In this document: in pieces, positions 5,320 through 41,562 of the stretch
Layout of the letters: each line of letters opens with the position of its first letter
Position numbering within the stretch: the stretch's first letter is position 1
IMG/VR virus record: IMGVR_UViG_2721756095_000004
Location: 1-64,000 of that record
Direction: 5' to 3' (one strand)
Length of the DNA: 64,000 nucleotides
From: a virus
Lineage: Duplodnaviria; Caudoviricetes
Translations under genes and position numbers: made by a program
Notes under the pieces: model-generated
The model's database searches: none
The model's input: the letters and a program-made list of their open reading frames with translations, nothing else
Told to the model about the DNA's origin: nothing

Positions 5320-5747
5320 TGCGCAAGCGCGACATCATTACCCAGGATATGTTCACGGTCCCTCAGCCAGCTCCCCGCTCGGCCGGGAGCTTAGCCTGCA
5401 GGGTAGAGATCGCGCACACCATGAGCGAAGCTCTGGACGGACACGACCGCTACGAAGTTTCTGCCACCATGAGCCGGTTGCTCGGCCGCGACATCAGCAA
5501 GCACATGCTGGACGCCTATACCGCTGAATCGCGGGAAGACCACATTCCACCCCTGGATACCGCCATTGCCTTCGACATGGCGACCAGCGACATATCACTA
5601 CTCAATCTCTACGCATCCAAACTCGGCGCGCGAGTATCCGTTGGTAAGGACGCCTTAAATGCGGAGCTTGGCAAGCTCGAAAACATGCGCGACGAAGTGG
5701 TCAAGCAAATTAAGCGCCTTAAAAAGGTAATGGGAGAGCGGCCGTGA
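5319..5747 (+). CDS. Mu-like phage early hypothetical protein
   Basis: 142-aa ORF translationally coupled between ner and transposase. Confidence 0.75.
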   Translation: MRKRDIITQDMFTVPQPAPRSAGSLACRVEIAHTMSEALDGHDRYEVSATMSRLLGRDISKHMLDAYTAESREDHIPPLDTAIAFDMATSDISLLNLYASKLGARVSVGKDALNAELGKLENMRDEVVKQIKRLKKVMGERP

Positions 5748-9902: not shown

Positions 9903-10201
9903 CAACTCCACCCCTTCCCAACGCGTCGTCTATCGGCGTGAATTATCAAATGATGGATGCCCTCGCGCGAGTAAAGCGCGTCGCCTTAATGCTTGTGCAT
10001 CGGGGGTTCCGCATCCTAGAAATCCGGATGAGTCCGATCGCATCGGTCATCACCATCATGCCGGAGGTCGAGTGCTCAAGCCTGGGTGTGGCGGAGATCA
10101 GCCGTAACGAGCACCGGGGCGGCATGGATTACACGATGGTGGTGTCGCACGATGGCGTCGATGTCCAGTGGACGGTTACAAAGCGCAGGAGTCTGTCATG
10201 A
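9899..10201 (+). CDS. Hypothetical protein (paralog of 10362-10760)
   Basis: ATGA overlap; ends in GVDVQW. Confidence 0.6.
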   Translation: MTTPPLPNASSIGVNYQMMDALARVKRVALMLVHRGFRILEIRMSPIASVITIMPEVECSSLGVAEISRNEHRGGMDYTMVVSHDGVDVQWTVTKRRSLS

Positions 10202-10365
10202 GCGAAATCCAATTACTCTTAGGCACGATCGCGCAGCTGGCTGACGTGATGCAGCGGTGCGACGCGGAGGTCGCGCAAGACAATCCCACAACCGATGAAG
10301 AATGGGATGCCGCCCTGAATCAGGCTGCGCACGTGTTGCTTGAATCGGAAGGGAGGCCGCTATGA
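10198..10365 (+). CDS. Small hypothetical protein
   Basis: AGGAG RBS; ATGA overlaps. Confidence 0.55.
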   Translation: MSEIQLLLGTIAQLADVMQRCDAEVAQDNPTTDEEWDAALNQAAHVLLESEGRPL

Positions 10366-10760
10366 ACAACCGGTATATGCCGCCTGATCCGCAGGATATG
10401 GAGCGGCCCGAGTCCGGGTTACCACCTGTACGGCACGCGGAGAATGGCATCAGTGCCCATGATGGCGGCAACATGACAGCACAGCCTGTACTCAATGCGC
10501 CGTCAATCGGCCAGCAAAATCAGGGCGTCATCGATTCCACAAGTCGCGCAAAGCGCGCTGCCGTTCGGCTTGCGCGAGCAGGATGCACGATAAAACACAT
10601 TGCGGTGGGTAACCGGAATACGCGTGTCCTGGTCGAGAATCACCCGCTGCTGCCGATCTTTCTGGAAGCCTCCCCGATCAAATACACCGGCACGGAAACC
10701 ACCATGGCCGCCAGCATAGAGGGCGTCCAGGTCGAGTGGGTTATCAGGAGGGTGCCATGA
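10362..10760 (+). CDS. Hypothetical protein (paralog of 9899-10201)
   Basis: GGAGG RBS; ends in GVQVEW. Confidence 0.65.
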   Translation: MNNRYMPPDPQDMERPESGLPPVRHAENGISAHDGGNMTAQPVLNAPSIGQQNQGVIDSTSRAKRAAVRLARAGCTIKHIAVGNRNTRVLVENHPLLPIFLEASPIKYTGTETTMAASIEGVQVEWVIRRVP

Positions 10761-11047
10761 GGAGAGTCTGGTATCCAGGCCATCTGGGCCGCGCTATAGG
10801 TCTCACCAGCCTTTGTTTAGTAGTGGCTGGCGCCTTCGTGCTCAGCGATCGCGATCACGCGCAGCGCAACGAAATCTCTCGTTTGTCCTCTACGTGCCCG
10901 CCAGCCCAGGCGGGCGAGCAGCTGGCCGCTACGGTGCAAAGCGAATGCGGGAGCGGAGGCGAAGAATTGCGTTGCGTGTACATCTCAACCAGCGGCTACG
11001 GCCGCATCATGCGCAGCCGCCCGGCTGCGCCAGGGGGATCGTCATGA
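10757..11047 (+). CDS. Membrane-anchored hypothetical protein
   Basis: AGGAGG RBS; one hydrophobic segment. Confidence 0.55.
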   Translation: MRRVWYPGHLGRAIGLTSLCLVVAGAFVLSDRDHAQRNEISRLSSTCPPAQAGEQLAATVQSECGSGGEELRCVYISTSGYGRIMRSRPAAPGGSS

Positions 11048-11340
11048 CCACGTATACATTTCCGACGCTTGCCAACCCGGCAGCATTGACCGAGCAGGAA
11101 TTGCGTGTGGAGTTGGAGCGCGTCAATCACCAGGTGCTAACACTGGTCTCGCAGCTAAACACGTTGTCAGAACAGTTTAATGCGCATCGGAGCGTGTTGA
11201 TGGGTATATCAAGCAGTATGGCCCGAATCGTGGTTGAGCGCATGAAGAAGGACAAGGGCGACGTCAACTCGATTATCGATGAAATCATCCGCACGAACAT
11301 AATCATGGTGCCCCAAGGCGGGTCAGGCGGGGTGCACTGA
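11044..11340 (+). CDS. Coiled-coil hypothetical protein
   Basis: ATGA overlap; heptad pattern. Confidence 0.55.
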   Translation: MTTYTFPTLANPAALTEQELRVELERVNHQVLTLVSQLNTLSEQFNAHRSVLMGISSSMARIVVERMKKDKGDVNSIIDEIIRTNIIMVPQGGSGGVH

Positions 11341-11666
11341 TGATGCGGACAGAAACTCAAGAGAGCATCTCCGCTTGGGCCGAGCACGTATTCGGCCCAG
11401 CTGGTAGCAATGCGCGCACTGTCGGCCGGGCAAATGAAGAAATGGCCGAGTTGATCCGGGCAGCGACAAGCGACAGACCGATACATGAGCTGGTCGAGGA
11501 AGCGGCTGATGTTGTGATCGTGTTGTATCGGTTGGCAGCGCGAAACGGGTACAGCCTTGATGCCGCAATCGACGCCAAGATGGCGCTCAACCGGATCCGG
11601 AAATGGACGAAGGATGGTACCGGTCACGGATATCACGTCCGCGCTGACAAAGGGGAGGCGCGTTGA
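11340..11666 (+). CDS. MazG-like all-alpha NTP pyrophosphohydrolase
   Basis: EEMAEL...EEAADV...KMALNR.RKW motifs. Confidence 0.8.
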   Translation: MMRTETQESISAWAEHVFGPAGSNARTVGRANEEMAELIRAATSDRPIHELVEEAADVVIVLYRLAARNGYSLDAAIDAKMALNRIRKWTKDGTGHGYHVRADKGEAR

Positions 11667-12604
11667 TGGAGGCCAAGAGAAAAATCCTGAATCTACTAGC
11701 AGACAGCAGCTCGCAAAACCCTATGCCAGAGGCAGCGTTGTTTTTGCAGCTGGACCTATCAGCTGTCGACTACCTCCGCGTGCTCACGGAGTTGTATGAC
11801 GCCAGGGCTATCAATCGGGCGACTATCCATCGCGACGGCCGCACGGAAGACTATCTTTGGCCCACCGGCATGATCTCGAAAATCAATTACGGCAGGCAAT
11901 ACATCGTCTCAACCCCGCCCCCGAGTGACCGCAAAGCGGAAGCCCCAATCACAAAAACCCAGGAGAAACAAATGGAACAAACAATAAGCAAGACCCAGAT
12001 CATGCTTGATCTACTCAAAAAAAATGGTTCCGCAACCAGTAAGGAATTGATTGCGGCCTCCGGTGCTGCGTCCGTTAAACCGTATCTGGAAGGTTATTTC
12101 AAGCGCGGCTTGATAGTGTCCGAGGGAAGCTACTCAGACAAAGTTTACAGCCTTGCGCCAGGCGTAAAGCCAGAGGATTTGGTTCCTGCACCAAGAAAGC
12201 GTGCAACGCCAGTGTCTGCGGCAACCTCGCCTGTGGAAGTGATCAGCCACACGCACTCTCTACGCCGCACATCAGCTAAAGGTCTAGGCCAAGAATTTAT
12301 TGGGACTTGTGTTCAGTGCGGACAGGAAGACCTCACCATTGCTGATCTGGAAGGGTGCCCGAACCCGATCGGTATCACTGAGAGTGAGGCCGTGATCGAA
12401 GCTGTGGCACCGCTAGCGCCAGAGCCTGAGCCAGCTAAAACCAGTCAGGAGGCGCCCGCAAAATCTCGCTTTCGCGTGGCTATTACATCTGACCAAACCA
12501 TCATGTTGTTTGGATTGAGCACGCAACCGATCGAGCTGGACCGCGAGCAGGCCAAAACGCTGGCTGAGTTCGTGTCGGATAAAGGCGAGCTTCTGTGCGT
12601 CTGA
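11666..12604 (+). CDS. Hypothetical protein with wHTH and Cys/His segment; possible internal start near 11972
   Basis: GGAGG RBS; internal AGGAG-ATG (MEQTISK); HxxxCxxC...C segment. Confidence 0.55.
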   Translation: MEAKRKILNLLADSSSQNPMPEAALFLQLDLSAVDYLRVLTELYDARAINRATIHRDGRTEDYLWPTGMISKINYGRQYIVSTPPPSDRKAEAPITKTQEKQMEQTISKTQIMLDLLKKNGSATSKELIAASGAASVKPYLEGYFKRGLIVSEGSYSDKVYSLAPGVKPEDLVPAPRKRATPVSAATSPVEVISHTHSLRRTSAKGLGQEFIGTCVQCGQEDLTIADLEGCPNPIGITESEAVIEAVAPLAPEPEPAKTSQEAPAKSRFRVAITSDQTIMLFGLSTQPIELDREQAKTLAEFVSDKGELLCV

Positions 12605-13206
12605 TCTGTCCCTGTTGCCACACCGATTTCCCGATCGAGGCCGCGATCAACGATATCGCGGCCCGCAATGCGGTGGTGCGCGCTTTTTCAGTCACACCAT
12701 TCGGGGATCTGCTGATCGGCTATGTGCAGCTATTCAAACCGGCGCAGCGGGCTCTTTCAATGCCGCGCCTGGTGAAATTACTGGATGAGCTGATGCCAAT
12801 GATCCAGACGGGACGAATCGAGCGCGGTGGGCGTATCTGGCCAGCTCCCCAGGAATACTGGCGCCAGGCGTTTGAAGAGATGCTGGGCAAGCGCGACCAG
12901 CTCACCCTGCCCCTCAAATCGCACGGGTACCTGCTCACGATCATTGCCGGCTATGCGGACAAGGCAGAAGCAAAGGTAGAAGCAAAGTCAGAGGACCGGC
13001 GAGCTGGTAGGACGCCAGTAGGCGGGCAAGTAGTGAAGGAAGCAGGGTTAAGTGTGGACGAAGCTGGCGCCGAGCTCATGAAATTGGTGGATGCCAGCAG
13101 GAAACCCGCAACGCAACGCCCAGCCATGCCCACGTCCGTCAGGCAGCAGCTCGACAAATTCAAATCCCGTCCCGAATTACCAACCGAAGGAGAAAACCAT
13201 GGCTAA
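12595..13206 (+). CDS. Zn-ribbon Mu-like phage protein
   Basis: N-terminal CPCC; LPLKSHGYL motif. Confidence 0.7.
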   Translation: MRLICPCCHTDFPIEAAINDIAARNAVVRAFSVTPFGDLLIGYVQLFKPAQRALSMPRLVKLLDELMPMIQTGRIERGGRIWPAPQEYWRQAFEEMLGKRDQLTLPLKSHGYLLTIIAGYADKAEAKVEAKSEDRRAGRTPVGGQVVKEAGLSVDEAGAELMKLVDASRKPATQRPAMPTSVRQQLDKFKSRPELPTEGENHG

Positions 13207-13723
13207 AACCGCCACCAGACTCAAAGCCCAGGCGCAGGCTTATGTGCCGCAAACAAAGGATGATGCTGCCGCTGATATCCGCAAGATCGGCGACCTGCAG
13301 CGCCAGCTGCTGCGTGCCGCCACGGAAATGAATGATGCCGTCGCCATCGTCACACAAAATTTCCAGCCACGCATGGAGGCAATCAAGAATCAACTGCAGA
13401 TCCTCCAGGATGGCGTGCAAGGCTACTGCGAAGCACATCGGCTGGAGCTGACGGACGGCGGCAAGGTCAAGACCGCAAACCTCATCACAGGAGAGGTGCA
13501 GTGGCGCAAGCGGCCAGCGAGCGTTTCGGTGCGTGGTGTTGAAGCCGTGATTGAAACACTCAAGCGGCTGGGCCTCGGCAAGTTCGTACGCACGAAGGCG
13601 GAAATCAATAAAGAGGCCATCCTCAATGAACCGGATGAGGTGCGTGGCGTTGCTGGGATCACGTTGGTTACCGGCGTCGAGGATTTTGTGATTACACCGT
13701 TTGAGCAGGAAGTGACGGCATGA
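13199..13723 (+). CDS. gam: Gam-like host-nuclease inhibitor (DUF3164 type)
   Basis: KTANLITGEVQWR.RP.SV...EINKEAIL motif; AAGGAG RBS. Confidence 0.85.
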   Translation: MAKTATRLKAQAQAYVPQTKDDAAADIRKIGDLQRQLLRAATEMNDAVAIVTQNFQPRMEAIKNQLQILQDGVQGYCEAHRLELTDGGKVKTANLITGEVQWRKRPASVSVRGVEAVIETLKRLGLGKFVRTKAEINKEAILNEPDEVRGVAGITLVTGVEDFVITPFEQEVTA

Positions 13724-13938
13724 AGCTACAGGTCAACCTCAAAGGCGCTTGGCGCGAGGTGCTCTCATTTTCCGACAGGAACGCGGGGGGCGTTTGTGAA
13801 GAAGCCGCCCGGCTCGGTCGTCTTGCGGACAGGAAGGTCAAATTCCGCATTGCAGATGACGCGAATCGTGCGCTGGCACACTGCGAAGGACCCTATTTTA
13901 TTTGGAGCGAGGCGGGCGGCAAGTCGGAACCCACGTAA
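13720..13938 (+). CDS. Small hypothetical protein
   Basis: ATGA overlap with gam. Confidence 0.55.
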   Translation: MKLQVNLKGAWREVLSFSDRNAGGVCEEAARLGRLADRKVKFRIADDANRALAHCEGPYFIWSEAGGKSEPT

Positions 13939-14003
13939 AAATGCTTGCCAGAAGGCGTTAACCATAGCGCCTTCGATCAAGTTTTTTTAACGGAACAGAA
14001 ACC

Positions 14004-14450
14004 ATGTCAACCAGCAAATACACTCTCACGAAAGACCAATGGCAAAAGATCGAAACGGAGCTATCTAGCCCTTATGGGAACGTAAAGCTGCGCTGTGACG
14101 GTTACGAGATTACTGCATCAATACAACGCTTGAAGCCCCTCCAGAGCTGCATCGCGGTCTATGTTGATGGCTGGATTAAAGGCGAATGGATGAACGGGAA
14201 GGATGAGCGTGCCCTAAAGTTTTACTGTGAGAAAAAGAGATTTCTTTGGTCCGTCCAGAACCGGAGTGAAGCAAAAAAGAAGTTGCTCAACCGACGACTG
14301 GGTAAGTTTCTCAAGGATTTTTACAAAAAGATGGTTGAGAGCAGCTTTTCCGTGTGGGAACCATACTGGACCAGTCCGAAAGCATTCTGCCGCCATATCC
14401 GCAAAACATGCCAGTCCATCGAACTGGTGAAAACTGGATTTGTTGACTGA
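14004..14450 (+). CDS. Hypothetical phage protein
   Basis: 148-aa ORF, IAVYVDGWIKGEW motif, lower GC. Confidence 0.7.
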   Translation: MSTSKYTLTKDQWQKIETELSSPYGNVKLRCDGYEITASIQRLKPLQSCIAVYVDGWIKGEWMNGKDERALKFYCEKKRFLWSVQNRSEAKKKLLNRRLGKFLKDFYKKMVESSFSVWEPYWTSPKAFCRHIRKTCQSIELVKTGFVD

Positions 14451-14451
14451 G

Positions 14452-14871
14452 ATGAAACGCCCAACCCCTGATCTCCGCAAACGCGAGCTTGCACAGATCC
14501 ACATCGGCAAGGCGCAGCTCGGCCTGGATGATGAGACGTACCGCGCAATGTTGCAAGCGGTTGCCGGCGTCGGCTCGTCCGCAGAGCTGGATCATGCCGG
14601 GCGGCGCCTGGTGCTACAGCACATGCGTGCCCGTGGCTGGAAGAACGATAGAAAGCGGGTTACCCCTCCATCCGCAACGCAGAGCAAACAGGCGTTGATG
14701 CGCAAGATCGCCGCTATGCTGCACACGGCTGGGCGGCCTTGGCAGTACGCGGACGGTATGGCACGGCATATGTTCGCCGTGGAAAAGGCAGCCTGGTGCG
14801 ATGTTGCACAGTTGCGGAAGATTATTGCGGCGTTGGGTTATGACGCCAAGCGGAGACAGGGCCATGGTTGA
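14452..14871 (+). CDS. GemA/gp16-like regulatory protein (DUF1018)
   Basis: LAQIHIGKAQLGLDDETYRAML motif. Confidence 0.88.
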   Translation: MKRPTPDLRKRELAQIHIGKAQLGLDDETYRAMLQAVAGVGSSAELDHAGRRLVLQHMRARGWKNDRKRVTPPSATQSKQALMRKIAAMLHTAGRPWQYADGMARHMFAVEKAAWCDVAQLRKIIAALGYDAKRRQGHG

Positions 14872-15250
14872 GCTGGACGAAAGCTTGTTGCCAGGCATCT
14901 TGCGTGATATCGCGCGCCTGATCGGTTTGCCTGGCACGCTCCAGCTAGTGAAGCACTACGGTGGCGTGCGGCTGTATGTCCCGAAGCGGTTCGATCCGGA
15001 TCATGTGCTGGTCAAGGTTATCGGTCCGGTGGCCGTAATCATACTGATCAAGCATTTTGGGGGTGAGGCTCACTTTGATATTCCGCGAGCGCTCGCGGCT
15101 GCCAATGCCGTGCGCAACGCCGCTATCCGGGCGGAATATGCGGAGTTAAGCCAAAGGCGGTTGGCACAGAAGTACAACCTTACAGAGCGCCAGGTGCGAA
15201 ACATTCTGGCTGGGGATGAGCCTGATGAAATGCAGGAAAAGTTGTTCTGA
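14864..15250 (+). CDS. Mor/C-family transcription activator
   Basis: YGGVRLYVP, RNAAIR, LAQKYNLTERQVRNIL. Confidence 0.88.
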   Translation: MVELDESLLPGILRDIARLIGLPGTLQLVKHYGGVRLYVPKRFDPDHVLVKVIGPVAVIILIKHFGGEAHFDIPRALAAANAVRNAAIRAEYAELSQRRLAQKYNLTERQVRNILAGDEPDEMQEKLF

Positions 15251-18314: not shown

Positions 18315-19929
18315 TCGCTCAGCACGCCGGGAATTCCTTGACGGCATTGCCAATCTTGCTGCCGAGTATCGCCGCCAGATCGAGGCTGGCGTGGATGGTT
18401 TCGCGCCTGATCCGGCTGCGCGCCAGAAGCGAGTGAAGAAGGCCAACCACGATCTGGAGTATTTCGCGCGGACGTATTTCCCGCACTACGTCAAGCACGC
18501 CAACGCGCAGCTGCACGAATTCCTCTACAAACGCCTGTTGGAAATTGTGGACAACGGCGTGGGCGACCATGACGCGATCGCGGCGCCGCGCGGCAATGCC
18601 AAGTCGACCATCGTCACGCAGATCTTCGTGATCTTCTGTGTAGTTACAGGGCGGAAGCGCTTCCCAGTAATCATCATGGATGCGCTTGACCAGGCGCTGC
18701 CAATGCTGGAAGCGATCAAGGCTGAACTTGCGTTTAATCCACGCCTGGCGATGGATTATCCAGAGGCAACCGGTCAGGGGCGCGTGTGGCAGGTCGGCAC
18801 GATCATTACCGCCAACGATGCCAAGGTGCAGGCATTCGGATCGGGCAAGAAAATGCGCGGCCTGCGGCATGGACCGCATCGCCCTGACCTAACGATCTGC
18901 GATGACCTCGAAAACGACGAGAACGTGCGTAGCCCCGAACAGCGCGACAAACTGGAGTCCTGGTTGAAAAAAACCGTGCTATCGCTCGGTCCCGCCGATG
19001 ACAGCATGGACGTGATCGCGATCGGCACCATCCTGCACTATGACTCAGTCTTGGCGAGGCTGCTCAAAAACCTGTTATGGAAGTCGCGTAAGTTCAAGGC
19101 GGTGATCGCATGGCCGCACAGAATGGATCTGTGGGACAAATGGGAAGAGCTGCTGCTCAATACCGGAGAAGATGAGGCGCGGGCTTTCTATGCGGCGCAC
19201 TCGACCGAGATGGAAGCAGGTGCCGTGGTGAGCTGGCCAGCTGCGCAGCCACTCTACAAACTCATGGTAAAACGCGCCAGGGATGGCCGGGCGGCTTTCG
19301 ATTCAGAACAGCAGAACGACCCGATCTCAGGCGAGGATGCGCCCTTTGCCAACTGTATCAGCTTCTGGGTGAATCGGCTGAGCGAGTGGTCATTCTATGG
19401 CGCATGCGACCCTAGCCTGGGTAAGCATGGCGCGAGCCGCGACCCTTCGGCGTTGCTGATAGGCGGCTTTAACCGGCTCACTGGCATCCTGGACGTGGTC
19501 GAAGCGCTCATCAAGAAGCGTCTGCCGGACCGCATCATAGAAGACATTATCGCGCTGCAAGTGCAATATCACTGCCGCTTATGGGTGGTCGAGACTGTCC
19601 AGTTTCAGGAGTTCCTGCGGACGGAACTTGTCAAGCGTAGCGCGAAGCGTGGCATCCCGGTTCCCGCCCGCCCCGTGATTCCGCACGCCGACAAACTGCT
19701 GCGCATCGAATCGCTGCAGCCACACATGGCCAACGGTCTGATTCGGCTGCATCCGTCACAAGCCACGCTGATCGATCAGCTGAGGCATTTCCCCAAGGCC
19801 GACCACGATGACGGACCGGATGCCCTGCACATGCTATGGATGGCGGCGGTCACGCGCGGTGCGGGCATGGCCTACCAGGGCGCGCGGAGCAGCAATAAGG
19901 ATGAATTAACGGGAGCAGGCGCATGGTAG
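18307..19929 (+). CDS. terL: Terminase large subunit
   Basis: APRGNAKST Walker A, RGLRHG..RPDL.ICDDLEND, DPSLG, HDDGPDAL. Confidence 0.93.
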   Translation: MANRSARREFLDGIANLAAEYRRQIEAGVDGFAPDPAARQKRVKKANHDLEYFARTYFPHYVKHANAQLHEFLYKRLLEIVDNGVGDHDAIAAPRGNAKSTIVTQIFVIFCVVTGRKRFPVIIMDALDQALPMLEAIKAELAFNPRLAMDYPEATGQGRVWQVGTIITANDAKVQAFGSGKKMRGLRHGPHRPDLTICDDLENDENVRSPEQRDKLESWLKKTVLSLGPADDSMDVIAIGTILHYDSVLARLLKNLLWKSRKFKAVIAWPHRMDLWDKWEELLLNTGEDEARAFYAAHSTEMEAGAVVSWPAAQPLYKLMVKRARDGRAAFDSEQQNDPISGEDAPFANCISFWVNRLSEWSFYGACDPSLGKHGASRDPSALLIGGFNRLTGILDVVEALIKKRLPDRIIEDIIALQVQYHCRLWVVETVQFQEFLRTELVKRSAKRGIPVPARPVIPHADKLLRIESLQPHMANGLIRLHPSQATLIDQLRHFPKADHDDGPDALHMLWMAAVTRGAGMAYQGARSSNKDELTGAGAW

Positions 19930-21476
19930 GCATCGTCGACGTCAACGGCAATCCAATCAATACCGGACTGATCAAGGAAGCGCAAAGCGCCAGGGTTGGA
20001 GCCCTTCGACATGAGTTCGCAGGCCACCCCAGCCGTGGCCTCACCCCCGCCAAACTGGCGCGCATCATGGAATCCGCCGAGCAAGGCGATATCCGCGCCC
20101 AGCACGATCTGTTCCTGGACATGGAGGAGAAGGACGGCCATATCTACGCCGAGATGAGCAAGCGCAAGCGCGCGCTGCTCACGGTCGATTGGGATATCGT
20201 GCCGCCGCGCAACGCCAGCGCCAGGGAAAAGAAGGCGGCCGCGTACGTGAAGGAGCTGCTCACCGACGTGCCCAATTTCGAGGATGTGATCCTGGATGCG
20301 CTCGATGCCATCGGCCACGGCTTTGCATGCCAGGAGATCCAATGGCAGATGTTGGGGCGGGAGTGGCTCCCAAAAACGATCAGCCATCGCCCACAAAGCT
20401 GGTTTCAGACCGACCGTGAAACGCGCTCGCAGATCCGGCTGCGCGATATGTCGCTTGATGGAGCCGAGTTGCAGCCGTTCGGCTGGATCACTCATGTGCA
20501 TAAAGCCAAATCAGGCTTCCTTTCCCGCGCGGGACTGCACCGTGTGCTGGCCTGGCCCTTCCTGTTCAAAAATTACAGTGTGCGGGATCTGGCCGAGTTC
20601 CTCGAAATCTACGGCCTTCCCCTGCGCCTGGGCACGTATCCGACCGGCAGTAGTGACGATGAGAAAGGCACGTTGCTGCGCGCGGTGACCCAGATCGGCC
20701 ACGACGCGGCCGGAATTATTCCGGAAGGGATGATGATCGATTTCAAGGAAGCCGCAAAGGGCAGCCATGATCCATTCCAGGCGATGATGGACTGGTGCGA
20801 GCGCACCCAGAGCAAGGCTATCCTGGGCGGGACGCTGACCAGCCAAGCTGATGGCAAAAGCAGCACCAATGCCTTGGGACAGGTGCATAACGAGGTGCGG
20901 CACGATCTCAAGGTATCGGATGCCATCCAGCTTGCCGGAACATTAACCCGCGATCTGGTGTATCCGGTGCAGGCGCTTAACGTCGGCGGCGTCGAGGATC
21001 TTCGCCGAGCTTCACGCCTGGTGTTCGATATGCGTGAGCCGGAAGACTTCAAGATGATGGCCGAGTCGCTACCCGGCCTGGTGGACGTGGGCGTGCAGAT
21101 CCCGGTTAACTGGGTGAGCGACAAATTGCGCATCCCGCAGCCGGCAGAGGGCGAAGCGGTGCTGGTCAGAGCGCGTCCGGAATCGGGCGGGGCCGGACAA
21201 CCGTCCACGATGGCTACTGCCGCATTGTCTGCATTGCCTCCCGATGCGGATGAGTTTGACGTTCTTGCCGATGAGCTGGCCGGCGACTGGGAGCGCGTCA
21301 CAGATCCTCTAATTGCTCCGATAATTGCCCTGGCGGCCGAGGTGGATGATTTCGAGGCATTTCAGGCGCGCCTGCCGGAACTGATCCATGACATGGACCC
21401 GGCAATACTGGCGGAAACCCTGGCGCAGGGACAATTCGCGGCCCGTATCTGGGGCAAGGTCAATGGCGGGAATTGA
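19923..21476 (+). CDS. Portal protein (Mu gp29/DUF935)
   Basis: HPSRGLTP, FLEIYGLP.RLG.Y, SKAILGGTLTS, ALG.VHNEVR. Confidence 0.92.
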   Translation: MVGIVDVNGNPINTGLIKEAQSARVGALRHEFAGHPSRGLTPAKLARIMESAEQGDIRAQHDLFLDMEEKDGHIYAEMSKRKRALLTVDWDIVPPRNASAREKKAAAYVKELLTDVPNFEDVILDALDAIGHGFACQEIQWQMLGREWLPKTISHRPQSWFQTDRETRSQIRLRDMSLDGAELQPFGWITHVHKAKSGFLSRAGLHRVLAWPFLFKNYSVRDLAEFLEIYGLPLRLGTYPTGSSDDEKGTLLRAVTQIGHDAAGIIPEGMMIDFKEAAKGSHDPFQAMMDWCERTQSKAILGGTLTSQADGKSSTNALGQVHNEVRHDLKVSDAIQLAGTLTRDLVYPVQALNVGGVEDLRRASRLVFDMREPEDFKMMAESLPGLVDVGVQIPVNWVSDKLRIPQPAEGEAVLVRARPESGGAGQPSTMATAALSALPPDADEFDVLADELAGDWERVTDPLIAPIIALAAEVDDFEAFQARLPELIHDMDPAILAETLAQGQFAARIWGKVNGGN

Positions 21477-22254
21477 TCTCAAGGCATTGCCACCGAAAGA
21501 GTCGATCGGGTATTTCCGGCAGAAGGGCTACAAGATTGGTTTTAGCTGGGAAGATGTCTGGCAGCAGGAACACCAGGCGGCCTTCACGGTGGCCAAGGCC
21601 ATGCAGCTCGACATCCTGCGCGACATTCGGGCTGGTGTTGATGATGCTCTGGCAAACGGCACAACGTTTGCCGATTTCCGCAGGAACCTGAAACCGCTGC
21701 TGGTGCAGAAGGGTTGGTGGGGCAAGGCGGAAATGACCGATCCGGCCACAGGCGAGGCTAAGGCTGTTCAGCTTGGCAGCACGCGCCGCCTAAAGACGAT
21801 CTACGATACCAATCTGCGTACTGCTCACGCAGAGGGCCAGTGGGAGCGCATCCAGGCAAGCAAGGCCAGTTTTCCCTATCTGCAGTACTCCGGCAACAAC
21901 AGTGAGCACGCGCGTTTGCAGCATGCGGCGTGGGACGGGCTGATACTGCCCGCCGACGACCCTTTCTACCAGGCGCACATGCCGGTCAAGGCATGGGGTT
22001 GCAAATGTCGGGTAATACAGATGAGCCAGGGCATGCTCGACCGGCGCGGCTTGAGTGTGGGTGAGACGCCTGTCGTGCCGCAATACACGTACATCAATAA
22101 GAGGAGCGGCGAGGTGCAGAAAATTCCCCAAGGAGTCGATCCTGCGTTTCATTACCCTCCAGGCGGGCGCCAACAGAGCCTGGACAAGATGCTCGCAGAG
22201 AAGATCGAGAAACTGCCGGAGGATTTTCAGGGAAAAATCGATAAAACAAAATAA
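21463..22254 (+). CDS. Head morphogenesis protein (Mu gpF)
   Basis: AFTVAKA, RRLKTIYDTN, H...DG......DDPF, WGCKCRV. Confidence 0.9.
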   Translation: MAGIDLKALPPKESIGYFRQKGYKIGFSWEDVWQQEHQAAFTVAKAMQLDILRDIRAGVDDALANGTTFADFRRNLKPLLVQKGWWGKAEMTDPATGEAKAVQLGSTRRLKTIYDTNLRTAHAEGQWERIQASKASFPYLQYSGNNSEHARLQHAAWDGLILPADDPFYQAHMPVKAWGCKCRVIQMSQGMLDRRGLSVGETPVVPQYTYINKRSGEVQKIPQGVDPAFHYPPGGRQQSLDKMLAEKIEKLPEDFQGKIDKTK

Positions 22255-22513
22255 GCGGTTTTGGAGCCTGGCCCGCCTTAGTGGTGGCATAGGTAGCGGG
22301 AATGTCCTGTTACCCGCGTTAGACCCCCGTTAAATTCGCTTGGAAGGGCATTCAAACCTTCGACGCCGCCTGCCAATCCAAGCTCCTGGCGTGAGCAAAC
22401 TCAATGGGCAGTACGGTTCGGCCTAACTGCCATGTCCCCTTTAGACGTAGGTCGCCAGGATTCCACACAAGCGAACCCCAGCCTAGGACCGCAACTCGCG
22501 CGCTTGCTCCTGC

Positions 22514-24532
22514 TCAAAGTATCGGAATCTGGAGGCGCTCGAAGAACGACCTGTTTCGTTTTTTGGCATCACTCAGCACTTTGTCATAGGACAATATTTC
22601 AATATAGCAGCCCGAGTGCTTGTGATACTGAAAATATCCCTCGTTGTCCGGAGTTTTTACGAAGTCTCGACTCTCTGCGATTGCGCGGATGCGGGGGGTA
22701 AGACTGCACAGGATATACGCGTAGAACGGAATTGCCCCAACGTTGAGAGTCTTTCCATCTCTGTCTTTCGCTAGCCCGTCTTTGATCTTACTGACATAGC
22801 GCAGGACTTGGCCGACAGGATCCTCCTCTCTCAAAGGATATTCATTCCTCTCCGGGCGCTTGAACTCCACGATCACGACCGATTGATAGGGACTCCGCGT
22901 GTCTGAGAACGCCCGTGGCGTATTGAAGACCACCAAGTCCGGTTCATCTCCGCCGTCGACGTTAATCACCTTCAATCGACTAACCGGGAGGTCGGAAGCT
23001 AGGTGCCAGTGATACGCCAATCGTTCGTCAACAACCCATAGGTTCTGCTTTTCAAACTCCACATCGTCCGACGTCTTTTGCATCGGGTAAATAAGTTGGT
23101 GCACAAAGTCTTCCCGGGCGTAGGCACCACTCTCTTGGAGCTTCAAAGCACTGTCGAGCATTTCGAGAATTGTCCGCCTGTGCACAACGTATTTCGCCAG
23201 GGCTGCCTTCCCCAATTCGTTCTCTTCGTGCAAATACTGGTCGTAGAGAGCTTGATATTCGAGGGCGCCCGTAGCGGATTCTGGAGGCGGTACCTTAATT
23301 TGCGCAGCCAGTTGTCGGTGTTCGACCTCGATGTCTTGTTGCGTCTTGTAAAGCTCAACGTCGAGTTGCTCATCAGTAAGATTTGGAGGAATCTTCGCAA
23401 GCCGGGCACTGTGGCGCTCCTGCAGAACGTACCGAAATTGAGGTGCCTTCTGCTGCACAAAGGCCTCAATAGTTTGGCGCTTCTCCTGCTGAAGCGCGGT
23501 CGTGTATGGCTCAGCTATAGTGCGGAGAACGTTGGCGACTTCAGCGTCCAGCTCGGCCCGTGTCATCTCGCCCGGAAACTCAAGGTCCGCATCCTGTAGG
23601 AACATGAAGTCTGTCCGTTCCGAATTAACTCGAGCGTCGAGATAAGATCCTGAAACATACGCCTTGAAGACAAATGACTGACCATGCTCGTCAGTGAATC
23701 TGGCATCGAACTCTGGCATGGATTTTGCTGCTTTCCGCTCAAGTACTTCACGCTGGTTCGCGCAATATGAGACAGTGTGGTGTTTCTTGGAACTGGACTG
23801 AAACCGCAGGATCTTTGCCTTAAATCTCTGTGCACGTATGCTGAACTCCACGTCCTGCGCGCGTTGCTTGGCCTCCTCGGCGAACACATAGTTTAGGTTG
23901 ATCGAGTGACCAGTATTGTCGTGAAGTGCAATTTGCGGACAGGATCCGCTGACGAAATGGATCAGGAAATGGTCTATTACTTTATGGCCAATGGTCTCAA
24001 GCGACTTCGGGAAGTGCTTCTGATACTCAAGGCGTAGCCCGGTGAGCTTCACGGCGGTCTTGCGGTGGCGTGTTGATGAGGGCTCCACCCGCTCGTTCTC
24101 GACGCCATTCGTCGTCTTTACGAAGTCAAATGTACGCCGCGTCCAAGCTTCACCGTCATGGAAGATACTGTCGATAATCGCCTTATCGAAAACTTTCAGC
24201 CAAGTAAAACGTCCTATGCCCTTGTTGCCACGGGTAGCTTTGCCTGTAGAGTCCGAGAGGAAAAACGCTCGCGCATTGCCGTCGTCGAATCCCCTTCCAT
24301 TGTCGAAGACGGAGATGTTTCGAATCGGCGCAATATTGATCTCTTCGGAGCCAGAGCCAGGTAGGGCCGCCTGGGAGAGATCTCGCTCGACATGAACATC
24401 GATACGCCCATCAGCGGCCTTCGCATCTTCGATGGCCTCAATTGAATTAACTAGACATTCGAACAGTGGGAGGAATGGCTGAGTCAGCGGGAGTTGGAGA
24501 TTATTTACCCGCCCAGCGATATCAACCTGCAT
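22514..24532 (-). CDS. GHKL ATPase - PD-(D/E)xK nuclease fusion (candidate anti-phage cargo)
   Basis: ECLVNSIEA, DNGRGF, GNKGIGRF GHKL boxes; C-terminal PDLVVF..IVEFKRP..QVLRY; GGAGG RBS; antisense to the late operon. Confidence 0.8.
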   Translation of the reverse strand: MQVDIAGRVNNLQLPLTQPFLPLFECLVNSIEAIEDAKAADGRIDVHVERDLSQAALPGSGSEEINIAPIRNISVFDNGRGFDDGNARAFFLSDSTGKATRGNKGIGRFTWLKVFDKAIIDSIFHDGEAWTRRTFDFVKTTNGVENERVEPSSTRHRKTAVKLTGLRLEYQKHFPKSLETIGHKVIDHFLIHFVSGSCPQIALHDNTGHSINLNYVFAEEAKQRAQDVEFSIRAQRFKAKILRFQSSSKKHHTVSYCANQREVLERKAAKSMPEFDARFTDEHGQSFVFKAYVSGSYLDARVNSERTDFMFLQDADLEFPGEMTRAELDAEVANVLRTIAEPYTTALQQEKRQTIEAFVQQKAPQFRYVLQERHSARLAKIPPNLTDEQLDVELYKTQQDIEVEHRQLAAQIKVPPPESATGALEYQALYDQYLHEENELGKAALAKYVVHRRTILEMLDSALKLQESGAYAREDFVHQLIYPMQKTSDDVEFEKQNLWVVDERLAYHWHLASDLPVSRLKVINVDGGDEPDLVVFNTPRAFSDTRSPYQSVVIVEFKRPERNEYPLREEDPVGQVLRYVSKIKDGLAKDRDGKTLNVGAIPFYAYILCSLTPRIRAIAESRDFVKTPDNEGYFQYHKHSGCYIEILSYDKVLSDAKKRNRSFFERLQIPIL

Positions 24533-24866
24533 TTGCTTATTCCCTCCCCAGAGCCCTCGGGGGCATCATGGCTATATGTGAGACACGTAGCTTACATGAC
24601 TTGTGTCGATAACGGATGAGTTTTGGCATGCATGTCAGATCATAGTGCCCTGTCTGTTCGGTGAACGATCCTATCCAACAGTTGATATAGCAACGCTGCA
24701 ACTCATTTAGCAATTACGGCCTGGATTGCTTAAACTTGAATGAATTCGAATGCGCGTAACAATTGATATGGAGTGTGATTAGCATAGGCGAGTGTAAATT
24801 CACATCCTTCAATTGACGACTCATGTTTTGCAATGCTAATCTGACTTAACTCTTCTCCCGTTTCCG

Positions 24867-24919
24867 GGAGGAAATGCTTCCGCCTTAACTCCTCTCCCAG
24901 CCGCCCGCACAATGGCGGC
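24867..24919 (+). promoter_or_regulatory. Activator-dependent late promoter (PI equivalent)
   Basis: Dyad GGAGGAAATGCTTCCGCC ending 36 bp before ATG; CACAAT -10. Confidence 0.75.
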
Positions 24920-26029
24920 ATGAATCGCAAGCACAAACTATCTCGTTCCGCAATCGGCATTGCCGTGTGCGCGTTCACCTTGTCCGCGAGCAAGGAAGTG
25001 CAGCTGCTGCCTGCCGGACAATTCCGCGCCAAGGACGGCCGCCCCAAAGATGTGCCGCACTGGTATATCGATGCGGCGCTGGCCGAAATCATCATTGCCG
25101 AAATTGCCAGGCTGAACAATTCCCTGGTCATCGACTACGAGCATCAATCCCTGCTGGCCGTCAGCAACGGCCAACCCGCCCCGGCCGCCGCTTGGTTCAA
25201 AAAGCTGGAGTGGCGCGAGGCAGATGGCCTTTACGCTATCGACGTGGAATGGACGCAACGCGCAGCCGCCATGATCGAGGCCAAGGAGTATCTCTACATT
25301 TCCCCGGTTTTCAGCTACGACAAAAAAACCGGCGCGATCAAATCAATCATTAACGCAGCGCTGACCAATAACCCTGCCCTCGATGGAATGGATGAGGTGA
25401 CAGCCCAGGCTGCCGCTACACGTTTTTCAACTGAAACACAGGAGCTTTTAACTATGAACCTCGATGAGCTGTTGGCCAACATCCGTTGGCTTTTGAACTT
25501 GCCGCTCCTGGCAACGCCGGAAGAGATTGCTGCGGAGCTGCAGAAGGCTGCCGATGTAATCAAAAACGGTAATCCGGAAGCGGCTGCAGCTGGATTCAGC
25601 CTGCCGGCACTGCTCGAAGCGCGGAACACGGAAATCGTTGCACTCAGGGCTGCCGCGCCAGATCCCGCCAAGTATGTGCCGATCGATGCGATGCAGGCCG
25701 TGCAAACCGAGCTGGCGACGCTGCGGGCAGACGTGAACGGACGCGAGGTGGATGGCCTGGTTACCGCCGCTCTGACCGACGGGCGTTTGTTGCCTCCGCA
25801 GGAAGCGTGGGCGCGTGGGCTGGGCGGCAAGGATATCGCGGCACTGAAAAGCTATCTCGACATCGCGCAACCGGTTGCGGCCCTGAGTGGCACGCAGACC
25901 GGCGGCAAGAAACCCGGCGACAGCGGAGACGGTGAGCAATTAACCGAATCGCAGCTGGCTGTATGCAAGGCGATGGGCGTTTCGGAGGACGACTTCAAGA
26001 AAACCCTGCAGGCTCAGCCGCAAGGCTGA
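24920..26029 (+). CDS. Head maturation protease/scaffold (Mu gpI/Z)
   Basis: LLPAG.F...DGRP, IDYEHQ, PAPAA.W, YLYISPVF, ALTN.PAL; possible internal scaffold start after AGGAG near 25454. Confidence 0.92.
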   Translation: MNRKHKLSRSAIGIAVCAFTLSASKEVQLLPAGQFRAKDGRPKDVPHWYIDAALAEIIIAEIARLNNSLVIDYEHQSLLAVSNGQPAPAAAWFKKLEWREADGLYAIDVEWTQRAAAMIEAKEYLYISPVFSYDKKTGAIKSIINAALTNNPALDGMDEVTAQAAATRFSTETQELLTMNLDELLANIRWLLNLPLLATPEEIAAELQKAADVIKNGNPEAAAAGFSLPALLEARNTEIVALRAAAPDPAKYVPIDAMQAVQTELATLRADVNGREVDGLVTAALTDGRLLPPQEAWARGLGGKDIAALKSYLDIAQPVAALSGTQTGGKKPGDSGDGEQLTESQLAVCKAMGVSEDDFKKTLQAQPQG

Positions 26030-26088: not shown

Positions 26089-26757
26089 ATGGCAGCTCTC
26101 GCAGCAGATCGCAACACACCGATGAAAGACGGCGAGCTGATTTCCGTCTCCGTTGCCGCCGCCGTCAAGATTTATGCAGGCTCCCTGGTAGCGGTCAACG
26201 CCTCAGGCTATGCCACGCCTGGCGCCCTTGCTGCCACGTTGACTTATCTGGGCCGTGCGGAAGAGCAAGTGGACAATACTGGCGCTGACGGAGCGAAGTC
26301 GGTGCTGGTGCGTGTCGGGAAAACGTTCAAGTGGCTCAACCACGGCGCTGATCCCGTGGTTCAGGCTGACCTCGGCAAGCCTTGTTATATCGTCGACGAT
26401 CAAACCGTGGCCAAGACCAACGGCAATGGAACCCGTTCTGCCGCAGGCACGGTGATTGCAATTGATTCGGATGGTGTCTGGGTGGCGGCTTCGGTGCGAG
26501 GCAATCTGACCGCCACTGCAGCACTGGATTTTGCATCAATCGCCGCTGCTGCCAGCGCGGATCTCACTATCGCAGTGGCGGGTGCTGCAGTAGGCGACGC
26601 GGTATCTCTGGGATTGCCCGCAGCGCCGACGGCGGGGCTCATTTTCCAGACGTTCGTATCCGCAGCCGGCATCGTCACTGTGCGCGCCACAAACATTACA
26701 GCCGGGGCAGTCGATGCGGCGTCCGCGACGTACCGTGTCACGGTGCACAAGTTGTAA
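26089..26757 (+). CDS. Head decoration/cement-like protein with extra C-terminal domain
   Basis: MAAL.ADRNT, YIVDDQTV, GVWV then an Ala-rich beta domain; between protease and capsid genes. Confidence 0.7.
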   Translation: MAALAADRNTPMKDGELISVSVAAAVKIYAGSLVAVNASGYATPGALAATLTYLGRAEEQVDNTGADGAKSVLVRVGKTFKWLNHGADPVVQADLGKPCYIVDDQTVAKTNGNGTRSAAGTVIAIDSDGVWVAASVRGNLTATAALDFASIAAAASADLTIAVAGAAVGDAVSLGLPAAPTAGLIFQTFVSAAGIVTVRATNITAGAVDAASATYRVTVHKL

Positions 26758-26820: not shown

Positions 26821-27858
26821 ATGAATCCAAGCAAGATACTCGTCCTGGCCTGCGCTGGTTTGCTCGCCATGGCATTAATACCGTTCGGTGCGATGGCTGC
26901 GCTGCCCCTGCCAATGCCTGACACGGACGTGGAAGTGATCGGCCTCCTTGGCCTCCTGGTAAACAAGGCAACCATCAGCAATGTTTTCATCAGTCTGAAA
27001 ACGACTTTCAACAATGCTTTTGGCGCCGCGCCGACCGTATGGCAGAAAATCGCCATGAAGGTGACATCGACCACGGGCCAGAACGATTACGCATGGCTTT
27101 CCAAGTTTCCCAAGATGCGTAAATGGATCGGGGACAAGGCCGTCAAGTCGCTGGAGGCGTTCAAATACACCGTCGTCAACGATGACTTCGAGGCAACCGT
27201 AGAAGTCGATCGCAACGATATCGAAGACGACAACCTTGGCATCTATGGTCCCCAGGCACAGATGGCTGGCGAGTCTGCCGCGCAGTTGCCGGATGAGATC
27301 GTGATGGATCTGGTGAACAACGGTTTCACCAACCTGTGCTTCGATGGCCAGTATTTTTTCGATACTGACCACGTTGTGGCCGGCGCCAGCGTATCCAATA
27401 AGGGCACTAAAGCACTTTCCATTGCCACCCTGGCATTGGCGCAAGCCAGCTACGGCGCTTACCGCACCGCGATGAAGAAATTCAAAGATGATGAAGGCCG
27501 CCCGCTTAACGTCAATCCGAATATTCTGCTAGTTGGCCCCTCTCTGGAAGATACCGCCAACGCATTGATGACGGTGGACCGCCTGGAAGACGGCAAGCCC
27601 AACCCGTACAAGGGCACCGCCACCGTTGTGGTTGACGCACGTATCACCTCGGACACCGCATGGTACCTGCTGGATACCACCAAGGCCGTCAAGCCCTTCA
27701 TCTACCAGGAGCGTAAGGCCCCGGTGTTTGTCGAGCAGACGGCCTCCGAATCCGACGACGTATTCAACCGCAAGAAATTCAAATTCGGGGCGGAAGCGCG
27801 GGCAGCCGGCGGCTACGGTTTCTGGCAACTGGCTTATGGTTCGGACGGTACCACCTAA
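26821..27858 (+). CDS. Major capsid protein (Mu gpT) with hydrophobic N-terminal extension
   Basis: Y.WL..FP.MR.W.G, FE.TV.V.RNDIEDD.LG.Y, CFDGQYFFDTDH, KPFIYQ.R, GYGFWQ.A. Confidence 0.93.
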   Translation: MNPSKILVLACAGLLAMALIPFGAMAALPLPMPDTDVEVIGLLGLLVNKATISNVFISLKTTFNNAFGAAPTVWQKIAMKVTSTTGQNDYAWLSKFPKMRKWIGDKAVKSLEAFKYTVVNDDFEATVEVDRNDIEDDNLGIYGPQAQMAGESAAQLPDEIVMDLVNNGFTNLCFDGQYFFDTDHVVAGASVSNKGTKALSIATLALAQASYGAYRTAMKKFKDDEGRPLNVNPNILLVGPSLEDTANALMTVDRLEDGKPNPYKGTATVVVDARITSDTAWYLLDTTKAVKPFIYQERKAPVFVEQTASESDDVFNRKKFKFGAEARAAGGYGFWQLAYGSDGTT

Positions 27859-40800: not shown

Positions 40801-41562
40801 ATGCACAACCCTATTATTCCGTGGATCGGCGGTAAACGCCGCCTGGCAAACAAGATCATGCCGCTTTTCCCAGCCCATGAATGCTATGTCGAACCGTTTG
40901 CCGGCGCGGCCGCGTTGTATTTCCGGAAGGCGCCGGCACAGGTCGAAGTGCTCAACGACATCAATGGCGAGTTGGTGAATTTATACCGAGTGGTCAAGCA
41001 TCATATGGAAGAGCTTGCCAAGCAATTCAAGTGGGCGTTAACCAGCAGACAAATATTCAAGTGGCTGCAGGCAACACCAGAGGAAACGCTGACCGATATC
41101 CAACGTGCGGCCAAGTTCTATTACCTGCAAAAACTGGCATTCGGCGGCCGAGTGGAAGGCCAGACCTTTGGCACAGCCACTACCTCACCGCCCAGACTTA
41201 ACTTGCTACGGCTTGAGGAGGATCTGAGCCAGGCTCACCTGCGCTTGGCCAGAACCTACATCGAACATCTGGATTGGCAGGAATGCATCAGCAAGTACGA
41301 CCGGCCGCACACTCTTTTTTATCTCGATCCGCCGTACTGGGGGACCGAGGGATATGGCGTCGGGTTCGGTCTGGAGCAATATGATGAGATGGCGAAACTG
41401 GCCAAGACGATAAAGGGAAACATGATCATCAGCGTCAACGATATCCCTGAGATGCGAAACGCCTTCGCTGGACTGACGATGGAGTCAGTCGATATCAACT
41501 ACACGGTCGGTGGAGCGCAGAGGTGCGGGAAGCGTGCCGAGCTGATCATCAGGAGTTGGTGA
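40801..41562 (+). CDS. DNA adenine methyltransferase (D12/Dam class) at the mom position
   Basis: PWIGGK, YVEPFAG, LNDIN, FYLDPPY. Confidence 0.93.
   Translation: MHNPIIPWIGGKRRLANKIMPLFPAHECYVEPFAGAAALYFRKAPAQVEVLNDINGELVNLYRVVKHHMEELAKQFKWALTSRQIFKWLQATPEETLTDIQRAAKFYYLQKLAFGGRVEGQTFGTATTSPPRLNLLRLEEDLSQAHLRLARTYIEHLDWQECISKYDRPHTLFYLDPPYWGTEGYGVGFGLEQYDEMAKLAKTIKGNMIISVNDIPEMRNAFAGLTMESVDINYTVGGAQRCGKRAELIIRSW

Follow-up and report, generated by a model that had tools for sequence, protein, structure and literature searches.

The 64,000-nucleotide stretch analysed here (positions 1 to 64,000 of the IMG/VR virus record IMGVR_UViG_2721756095_000004; hereafter the window) holds a Mu-like prophage, and within its head module lies a gene for a 672-aa protein in which a GHKL ATPase, an S5-like middle domain, a helical linker and a PD-(D/E)xK nuclease follow one another (Table 1). 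The gene is present as a single copy in its 3.27-Mb genome and is antisense to its plus-strand neighbours in the head module. On its left these are the portal (19923-21476; Pfam Portal_Mu, E=3e-104) and a short Mu F-like gene, on its right the Mu I protease/scaffold gene and the gpT major head protein (26821-27858; Pfam E=2e-96). Its ATG start is supported because homologues share the same N-terminus, MQVDI.GR. A HMMER scan of 1.84 billion cluster representatives recovered 2,936 proteins at E<=0.001 (1,978 at <=1e-10 and 1,066 at <=1e-30), and among the 150 matches listed nearly all are full-length, with about 650-700 aa. This number of matches, together with the near-uniform full length, argues that the gene is real, and the antisense gene of 672 aa proposed in a preliminary description of this DNA is thus confirmed as a member of a full-length family. 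The closest proteins, at 71-72% identity, are metagenomic, and the named relatives (66-70% identity) come from Burkholderia, Zoogloea, Roseateles, Pseudolysobacter and Geobacter, labelled either 'hypothetical' or 'ATP-binding protein'.

The motifs of the ATPase are strictly kept in the family. In an alignment of 40 members with 35-72% identity (A1), E25 and N29 of motif I (FECLVNSIEA) are invariant in 40 of 40 sequences, as are D77, G79 and G81 of motif II, K104, G105, G107 and R108 of the glycine-rich lid that forms motif III, and T159. Pfam HATPase_c_3 stays below threshold on the cargo protein (E=0.024, 15.1 bits vs a cut-off of 25); at E<=1 it matches 28 and HATPase_c 20 of the 40 members, the best HATPase_c_3 score being 24.8 bits and none attaining the gathering score. 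The AlphaFold2 model of the full-length protein has a mean predicted local distance difference test (pLDDT) of 80.2 and a predicted template modelling score (pTM) of 0.63, and its top Foldseek matches are Hsp90, TRAP1, GyrB, ParE, SMCHD1 and Topo VI-B (E 4e-12 to 2e-10, probability 1.00, 370-465 columns). Moreover, the alignments to Hsp90 and GyrB, of 420-465 columns, cover both the ATPase and the middle (transducer) domains.

A search of PDB sequences with the cargo protein alone gave chance-level matches only (E>1). With the family profile the only match is the N-terminal fragment of Mlh1 (4p7a; whole-sequence E=0.019), and here profile positions 207-316 align to the Mlh1 transducer domain, with the invariant R306 (NSERTDF) opposite the lysine of Mlh1 HPTKHEV. 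This lysine is the counterpart of MutL K307, which contacts the gamma-phosphate. After the middle domain, the AlphaFold model places the four long helices of the linker at residues 325-361, 364-379, 387-412 and 420-463. NCBIfam gives only weak sacsin-type matches (7 of the 40 members, best E 0.0078), and the ESM Atlas returns 'ATP-binding protein' clusters only.

In the C-terminal third, E474, H478, D502, E503, H508, D532, E556, K558, Q575 and Y579 are invariant columns of A1. The invariant columns of A1 and the helices of the model uphold the GHKL boxes, the helical linker and the PD-ExK-QxxxY nuclease that had been noticed earlier from the letters. A second alignment (A2) comprises 49 sequences, namely the window protein and 48 of the 80 genome loci, chosen for spread, with L061 and L063 dropped for their in-frame stops. 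Folded alone with A2, residues 440-672 reach a pLDDT of 75.7 and a pTM of 0.76, and all the top structural matches of this domain have the restriction-endonuclease (RE) fold. A search of PDB sequences with the C-terminal profile found no match. A2 was also compared by hhalign with a profile built on 11 canonical SduA sequences that 10 genomes supplied (A5; 11 of 15 loci, leaving out two loci of unpublished genomes and two long GHKL-type frames), which gave a probability of 87.2% and E=3.9e-6 over 129 columns, with the catalytic Asp, E-x-K, QxxxY and a terminal (S/T)(Y/F)D-x-L motif in register. In our reading of these sequences, the nuclease domain would be a distant member of the Shedu nuclease clade, out of reach of current family models. 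The protein is filed here as paraMORC3-type and not as a Pfam-defined DUF4263 member, because the SduA_C model of Pfam does not recognise it.

The gene is inserted cargo of the Mu-like prophage, probably acquired horizontally. A prophage from IMG/VR (L138) lacks any homologue of the cargo gene, although its terminase, portal, F, I, T and tail genes are 75-92% identical in amino acid sequence to those of the present one. Its F-I gap is about 0.4 kb when measured from its own, longer F, and about 0.9 kb when the count starts where the F region common to L138 and the window ends. To the left of the cargo, an intergenic block is conserved between the two (window 22311-22357 vs L138 6814-6860, 87% identity), and to the right homology to L138 restarts near window 24,799, roughly 120 bp ahead of the start of I. 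Only about 20 bp separate these two conserved blocks in L138, which therefore delimits the cassette to about 22,360-24,798, close to the extent of 22381-24860 suggested before. Since so close a relative lacks the gene, the stretch just before the protease gene has genuinely received an insertion, as the preliminary description had supposed of an accessory slot at this place. Base composition differs moderately as well, the GC content of 22215-24830 being 51.6% vs a prophage mean of 57.5% (segments of equal size range from 50.5 to 60.8%, this one not being the lowest) and the GC content at third codon positions (GC3) of the cargo gene 0.59 vs 0.68-0.72 in the head genes. In nucleotide sequence the head genes are similar to those of D3112-like phages of Pseudomonas (LPB1, H70) and of Ralstonia Mu-like phages; the cargo stretch is covered by no phage record, and none of the 271 matching records spans >=80% of the 7.95-kb query.

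Table 1. Position and basis of the features of the cargo gene, its flanks and its prophage context (window coordinates).
Feature	Position	Strand	Basis
GHKL ATPase / S5-like / helical linker / PD-(D/E)xK nuclease gene, 672 aa	22514..24532	-	ORF (open reading frame), ATG start, stop codon included
GHKL (Bergerat-fold) ATPase domain, residues ~1-170	24023..24532	-	invariant motifs, Foldseek
S5-like middle (transducer) domain, residues ~175-320, invariant R306	23573..24010	-	Mlh1 profile alignment, Foldseek
Helical linker, residues ~325-463	23144..23560	-	four long helices, AlphaFold model, pLDDT mostly 83-92
PD-(D/E)xK nuclease domain, Shedu type, residues ~470-672 (D532, E556, K558, Q575, Y579)	22517..23125	-	
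Cargo cassette, ~2.43 kb, in the F-I intergenic region	22360..24798	.	absent from L138; GC, GC3
AT-rich 5' flank of cargo gene, presumed promoter region	24533..24798	-	Shine-Dalgarno GGAGG; GC of 24533-24830 = 44.3%
3' flank of cargo gene	22360..22513	-	no terminator-like site; fold not better than shuffles (z -0.26)
Mu F-like head morphogenesis gene, short form, left neighbour	21388..22254	+	Pfam Phage_Mu_F E=1.8e-16
Mu I protease/scaffold gene, right neighbour	24920..26029	+	Pfam Mu-like_Pro E=4.4e-111
Mu Gam gene of the same prophage	13091..13723	+	PF07352 E=1.1e-37 at G000:C2:1022841-1023281 (window 13259-13699)
Dam-type (MethyltransfD12) methylase, prophage right end	40801..41562	+	PF02086 E=2.2e-26 at G000:C2:1050404-1051054 (window 40822-41472)

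A second occupant of the same slot was found in a high-GC Mu-like phage on an IMG/VR contig (L129), where a family member of 671 aa (9944-11959) lies between F and I genes that are 40% and 45% identical to those of the window. This gene is in sense orientation and sits in a GC trough of about 58-60% vs 66-71%. It is 31% identical to the window protein, compared with 70% for relatives outside phages, and the two genes are hence independent acquisitions into the same slot. A scan of viral contigs with the single I protease sequence reached only one relative. At 8.4-9.9 kb of L129, other small ORFs accompany the cargo. The position recalls RGP G of the D3112-like Mu phages of Pseudomonas, described as a low-GC accessory locus just upstream of the protease/scaffold gene that holds anti-CRISPR genes (PMC4378225); both are accessory slots of lower GC that immediately precede the protease/scaffold gene within the head module of a Mu-like phage. 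However, the cargo of RGP G consists of small counter-defence genes read with the phage, whereas here it is a 2-kb gene of defence type on the opposite strand.

Outside this prophage the family is large and its spread is patchy, which is the pattern expected of a horizontally mobile gene. Of 599 candidate stretches in species-representative genomes, 540 proved to be relatives, at 35-41% identity, in Pseudomonadota, Bacteroidota, Cyanobacteria, Planctomycetota, Acidobacteriota, Bacillota, Verrucomicrobiota and two archaeal metagenome-assembled genomes. On plasmids, 58 of 72,556 records have a homologue, 30 of these 58 being predicted conjugative. In deposited phages the count is 1 of 50,697 records, the temperate phage vB_RanS_PJN03, where the gene adjoins the integrase. 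The homologue of this phage (ON245412.1; L082 2485-4509) keeps E25, N29, DxGxG, D524 and E555-x-K557, and it is annotated as an N-acetylmuramoyl-L-alanine amidase, probably a misannotation. In IMG/VR, 24 contigs have a homologue and three of them are Mu-like (L121, L126 and L129), with L121 and L126 carrying it at positions other than the F-I slot. A relative of the window's head genes was found near the homologue at none of 80 genome loci, and no gene of this prophage has a homologue nearby at 77 of these 80 loci or at 21 of the 24 viral ones; the family is therefore independent of Mu.

The neighbours of the homologues were surveyed as the two nearest called genes on each side, which a greedy ORF picker supplied for 36 loci (of 50 with full flanks among the 80). 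There is no conserved partner gene, no Pfam family occurring in more than 5 of the 144 neighbours. The most frequent families are HTH_3 (5), HTH_31 (4), and Phage_integrase, N6_Mtase and RVT_1 (3 each), and others include type ISP, Eco57I and MmeI methylases, AAA_15/21 and the Phd antitoxin. This agrees with the earlier statement that the gene has no partner methylase, none being present in the cassette either. PADLOC matched 384 models on the 144 neighbours, for example mad2, RmrA, MTase_II, RT_UG5-nitrilase/DRT, AriA, PtuA and AbiL, and 245 models, including PglX, type I S, BrxH and ZorD, on 139 control genes of the same loci that are 5 kb or more away. The homologues sit in mobile regions rich in defence genes.

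Two sets of loci may illustrate this company. On an IncC plasmid of Vibrio fluvialis (L081 6619-10013), a canonical Shedu gene of 459 aa, with the annotation 'Shedu immune nuclease family protein', shares its last 4 bp with the start of a homologue that is 32.7% identical to the window protein over its full length, and this gene pair is downstream of a type I restriction-modification operon with an extra AAA ATPase. The two may be a tandem pair of Shedu-type genes. The NCBI name of the first (P0083) could be traced to no model. Relatives with 87-97% identity are found in Vibrio, Aeromonas, Klebsiella, Proteus and other enterobacteria, and the contigs that bear them often measure about 90-100 kb. 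Three close relatives of the window protein, in Burkholderia and Paraburkholderia (L003, L004 and L009, about 12037-15082; 69% identity), are each followed after 20-45 bp by a gene of about 1,010 aa on the same strand. Three of the surveyed neighbours match RT_UG5-nitrilase (DRT) in PADLOC at E=0, and these are probably the genes of about 1,010 aa.

The architecture itself has been known as a prediction since 2008; it was given a class in 2023, and in 2025 one example passed experimental validation. As described by Iyer, Abhiman and Aravind in 2008 (PMC2292703), paraMORC3 proteins join GHKL and S5 domains to a conserved C-terminal domain of RE fold with E-D-ExK motifs, have a wide but sporadic spread with prevalence in proteobacteria and bacteroidetes, and are often standalone, with no conserved neighbours. 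All these features are found here, with GHKL and S5 domains whose ATP motifs are intact and a RE fold with E503 (and E474), D532 and E556-x-K558. The habit of the gene also corresponds, being standalone, with a commonest neighbour family at 5 of 144 and 540 relatives across many phyla. paraMORC3 is a purely computational definition, and the assignment made here follows its published description and not member sequences. Later, Gu et al. placed in type 1D those Shedu homologues in which a GHKL ATPase fold is linked to an Hsp90/MORC-like middle domain, and counted 121 Shedu genes in prophage loci (bioRxiv 10.1101/2023.08.10.552793).

The validated example is VcSduA from the WASA lineage of Vibrio cholerae, reported by Adams et al. 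(Nat Microbiol 2025, PMC12137116) as a GHKL ATPase with a DUF4263 nuclease, of the paraMORC3 / Shedu type I-D kind, with homologues in about 1.2% of genomes. According to that report, it protects E. coli from Drexlerviridae and V. cholerae from phage X29, and either E27A (ATPase) or K557A (nuclease) abolishes protection. Its protection is robust at all multiplicities of infection tested, which its authors read as direct restriction and not abortive infection, and in their dimer model the GHKL domains lie under a clamp-like cavity. Both proteins are products of a single gene on a mobile element and have N-terminal GHKL motifs I-IV, a clamp-like middle and a C-terminal PD-(D/E)xK nuclease. The carriers differ, being the VSP-II island for VcSduA and a Mu-like prophage here. 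Moreover, VcSduA is reported with a recognisable DUF4263, whereas the window protein and the tested relatives of Vibrio plasmid or integrative-and-conjugative-element type have no Pfam SduA_C match.

E27 and K557 of VcSduA correspond in position to E25 and K558 of the window protein, the same pair being E27/K556 in the V. fluvialis plasmid homologue and E25/K557 in that of vB_RanS_PJN03. The spacing between the Glu and the Lys is 529-533 in the family (533 in the window) vs 530 in VcSduA. A second GHKL-nuclease lineage (L095 1321-3141, minus strand; L096 43-2043, plus strand) has the same domain order and the same E(F/L)KRP nuclease motif. However, it is strongly matched by HATPase_c_3 (E 6e-20 and 1e-29) and near threshold by SduA_C (E 9e-4 and 2.5e-5), aligns to the window protein by BLASTP with only E 0.02-0.03, and has Glu-Lys spacings of 522 and 477. 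It seems, then, that the GHKL-Shedu architecture exists in at least two distant forms, and the numbering favours placing VcSduA in the window's lineage rather than with the L095/L096 type. The 90% cluster of the V. fluvialis homologue has two members, neither from V. cholerae. V. cholerae proteins 91-96% identical to that homologue were not taken as VcSduA, being on contigs of about 90 kb that were seen 1-6 times.

The canonical SduA enzymes are of a different build. Those of E. coli (8ps4/8ps5) and B. cereus (Shedu, 8ti8/8ti9) are tetramers with small N-terminal clamp or Whirly-like domains, whereas the N-terminal two thirds of the present protein is an ATPase machine and Pfam SduA_C does not score it. 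Canonical SduA is described as needing no ATP, the E. coli enzyme sensing free DNA ends (bioRxiv 10.1101/2023.08.10.552762). The host chromosome has such a canonical Shedu at G000:C2:935978-936511, about 73 kb before the start of the window (locus L088 868-2130; a 421-aa ORF in a 424-aa frame), and the lysogen would thus hold two Shedu-type nucleases of very different build. A further anti-phage protein, Tiamat, also unites a GHKL-superfamily (GHL) ATPase and a DNase in one chain, and is grouped with sacsin in a clade apart from the paraMORCs in the account given of it (bioRxiv 10.64898/2026.09.30.754977). Its models have no match here, PADLOC, which includes defence models of that period, giving 0 matches.

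Taken together, this anatomy, the slot, and the company of the family on plasmids and prophages, beside restriction-modification and DRT genes, make it probable that the gene encodes a GHKL-gated, Shedu-like single-gene anti-phage defence of the paraMORC3 / Shedu type I-D kind, and the cargo would most likely shield the lysogen, and hence the prophage, from other phages. Of the candidate single-gene defence put forward in the preliminary description, the Shedu-like GHKL-nuclease cargo is retained and the implied novelty is not, in view of what PMC2292703, 10.1101/2023.08.10.552793 and PMC12137116 set out on such proteins. What is new is modest: a divergent lineage missed by Pfam and PADLOC, a precisely bounded insertion, and a second independent occurrence in the same slot.

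Several results weigh against this interpretation. Pfam SduA_C (PF14082) has no match in the cargo protein at E<=1 and matches only 1 of the 40 family members (E=8e-4) and none of seven further ones, the positive control, the canonical Shedu of the host, giving E=3.6e-27. Likewise, a genome-wide six-frame search with PF14082 misses the prophage gene and finds only this canonical Shedu. PADLOC-DB v2.0.0, named at the outset as a check, returned 0 families for the cargo protein at E<=1. With the nuclease domain alone, Foldseek has no match at E<=0.001, and the structural match prefers Shedu over Nt.BspD6I by only about 1 Z unit (VIA), that is, a near-tie. Membership of the VcSduA lineage is drawn from architecture and residue numbering. 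The PADLOC tally of neighbours is not a clean enrichment, its counts being per family and the distal control also bearing defence genes (including Zor-like ones); as regards the enrichment in defence islands that had been proposed as a test, defence genes do lie beside the homologues, but 384 vs 245 models do not separate the neighbours cleanly from the distal genes. Finally, a scan with the sigma-70 consensus detected no promoter-like site upstream of the gene on its strand.

By analogy with GHKL enzymes and VcSduA, binding of ATP would dimerise the N-terminal domains, and the middle and helical domains would close as a clamp round foreign DNA. Hydrolysis of ATP, with E25 as the general base, would then license or position the nuclease domains, which would cut the foreign DNA directly, the host not being killed. 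Both the ATPase and the nuclease activities are expected to be essential. Transcription would start in the AT-rich 5' flank of the gene and run against the late head operon, which would allow a lysogen with silent late genes to make the product. It is the antisense orientation alone that suggests such expression. The ribosome-binding site GGAGG, which ends 10 nt before the ATG, and the AT-rich upstream region (see Table 1 for its GC content, vs the prophage mean of 57.5%) are both as first described. The 5' flank has no similarity to the flanks of homologues, the RNA folds of both flanks of the cassette are no better than shuffles, and a single terminator-like site, fewer than expected by chance, was detected, inside the gene.

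The phage also encodes a methylase and a Gam protein, which, in the preliminary description, might keep the nuclease, a possible sensor of modified DNA or DNA ends, off self DNA, its methylase being of the Dam type; no N6_N4 or C5 methylase is present inside the window. A wider idea, which we rate as rather unlikely, is that Mu-like phages may repeatedly recruit GHKL-type Shedu genes upstream of gene I, being naturally immune to them through transposition inside host DNA and Gam-capped ends. The clamp-nuclease would hit free or replicating linear phage DNA, sparing its carrier and killing competitors, with the GHKL module as an ATP-gated sensor of DNA ends or topology, and the slot would take anti-CRISPR or defence cargo according to the phage lineage.

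Among the alternatives to a Shedu-like defence, the one that survives best, with a small chance of being correct, is a modification- or site-dependent restriction enzyme following the logic of McrBC, FokI or BspD6I, where the GHKL module would be a DNA-looping or translocating motor linking recognition to cleavage. Such a motor, coupling a recognition event to cleavage, is what Iyer et al. proposed for paraMORCs (PMC2292703). However, it is SduA specifically whose catalytic and C-terminal (S/T)(Y/F)DxL motifs are brought into register by hhalign. Moreover, Pfam recognises no modified-base reader (SRA, EVE or DUF262) in the protein or in the 40 members, and no methylase is conserved beside the homologues, N6_Mtase accounting for 3 of the 144 neighbours.

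It is improbable, on the other hand, that the gene serves the phage in lytic growth and not the lysogen, for example by degrading host, plasmid or satellite DNA or by fighting co-resident mobile elements. Its place inside the late head region would suit such a role, as would the use that Mu-like phages are described as making of this slot, for counter-defence (anti-CRISPR) and not for defence (PMC4378225), and the L129 homologue, in sense with the head genes, could be read with the late operon. Nonetheless, the window gene is antisense to that operon, the family is independent of Mu at nearly all the genome and viral loci compared, and the one tested exemplar acts as host defence (PMC12137116).

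A functionless passenger, silent or decaying after a recombination that also shortened F, would be very improbable. The lack of a promoter-like site in the consensus scan would fit it, and F, with 262-288 aa vs 423 aa in L138, tells that the region was rearranged; but 672 codons are open, all the invariant residues of the family are kept and a Shine-Dalgarno sequence is present. Finally, it is scarcely credible that the protein is MutL-like and assists the transposable phage in DNA repair or transposition: Mlh1 is the only PDB sequence match of the family profile, and roles outside restriction-modification are considered for standalone paraMORC3 proteins by Iyer et al. (PMC2292703), but the closest relative prophage does without the gene, homologues are almost all outside Mu-like elements, and no MutS- or MutH-like partner occurs among the 144 neighbours.

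If the protein is a Shedu-like defence, as we favour, it adds a divergent, prophage-borne example to a defence family with a single tested member. Pfam SduA_C and PADLOC-DB v2.0.0 miss the whole lineage, which counts thousands of proteins across proteobacteria, bacteroidetes, cyanobacteria, planctomycetes and further groups, plasmids and prophages included, and surveys based on those models may therefore undercount GHKL-type Shedu. Also, the Mu-like slot known for anti-CRISPR genes can hold genes of defence type, independently in two distant phages. A compact protein of 672 aa in a natural carrier phage with Gam and Dam would be a reasonable model for GHKL gating of a Shedu nuclease.

Some observations concern the surroundings of the cassette. 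The F gene measures 288 aa if read from its first ATG and about 262 aa if read from the start that corresponds to that of L138, and its homology to the longer F of L138 (5353-6624) stops near window 22,210, about 140-160 C-terminal residues being missing or replaced beside the cargo insertion. Just past the F stop there is a 10-bp hairpin (about 22292-22314), followed by the conserved 47-bp block at 22311-22357, the overall fold being no better than shuffles (z -0.5). At this operon boundary, the hairpin and the block could be a terminator or a late-promoter element. Rfam over 21500-25500 gave nothing credible (a single match, E=0.42). L138 has about 3.5 kb of extra genes between portal and F (1841-5351) that are not in the window, with ORFs of 110, 146, 147, 145, 510 and 103 aa, the 510-aa one having long alanine-rich repeats; this is a second variable slot of the same head module.

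Three short ORFs around the cargo were not read as genes. The 58-aa ORF at 24537-24713(-) has relatives in no locus, the matches of 22404-22589(+) are an antisense shadow of the conserved 3' end of the cargo gene, and those of 24730-25131(-) a shadow of gene I. Between the protease/scaffold and major head genes, a 222-aa ORF (26089-26757, plus strand) has as its sole match a weak one to Pfam NAGPA (E=0.0055), and at the equivalent position Pseudomonas Mu-like phages have a putative decoration protein.

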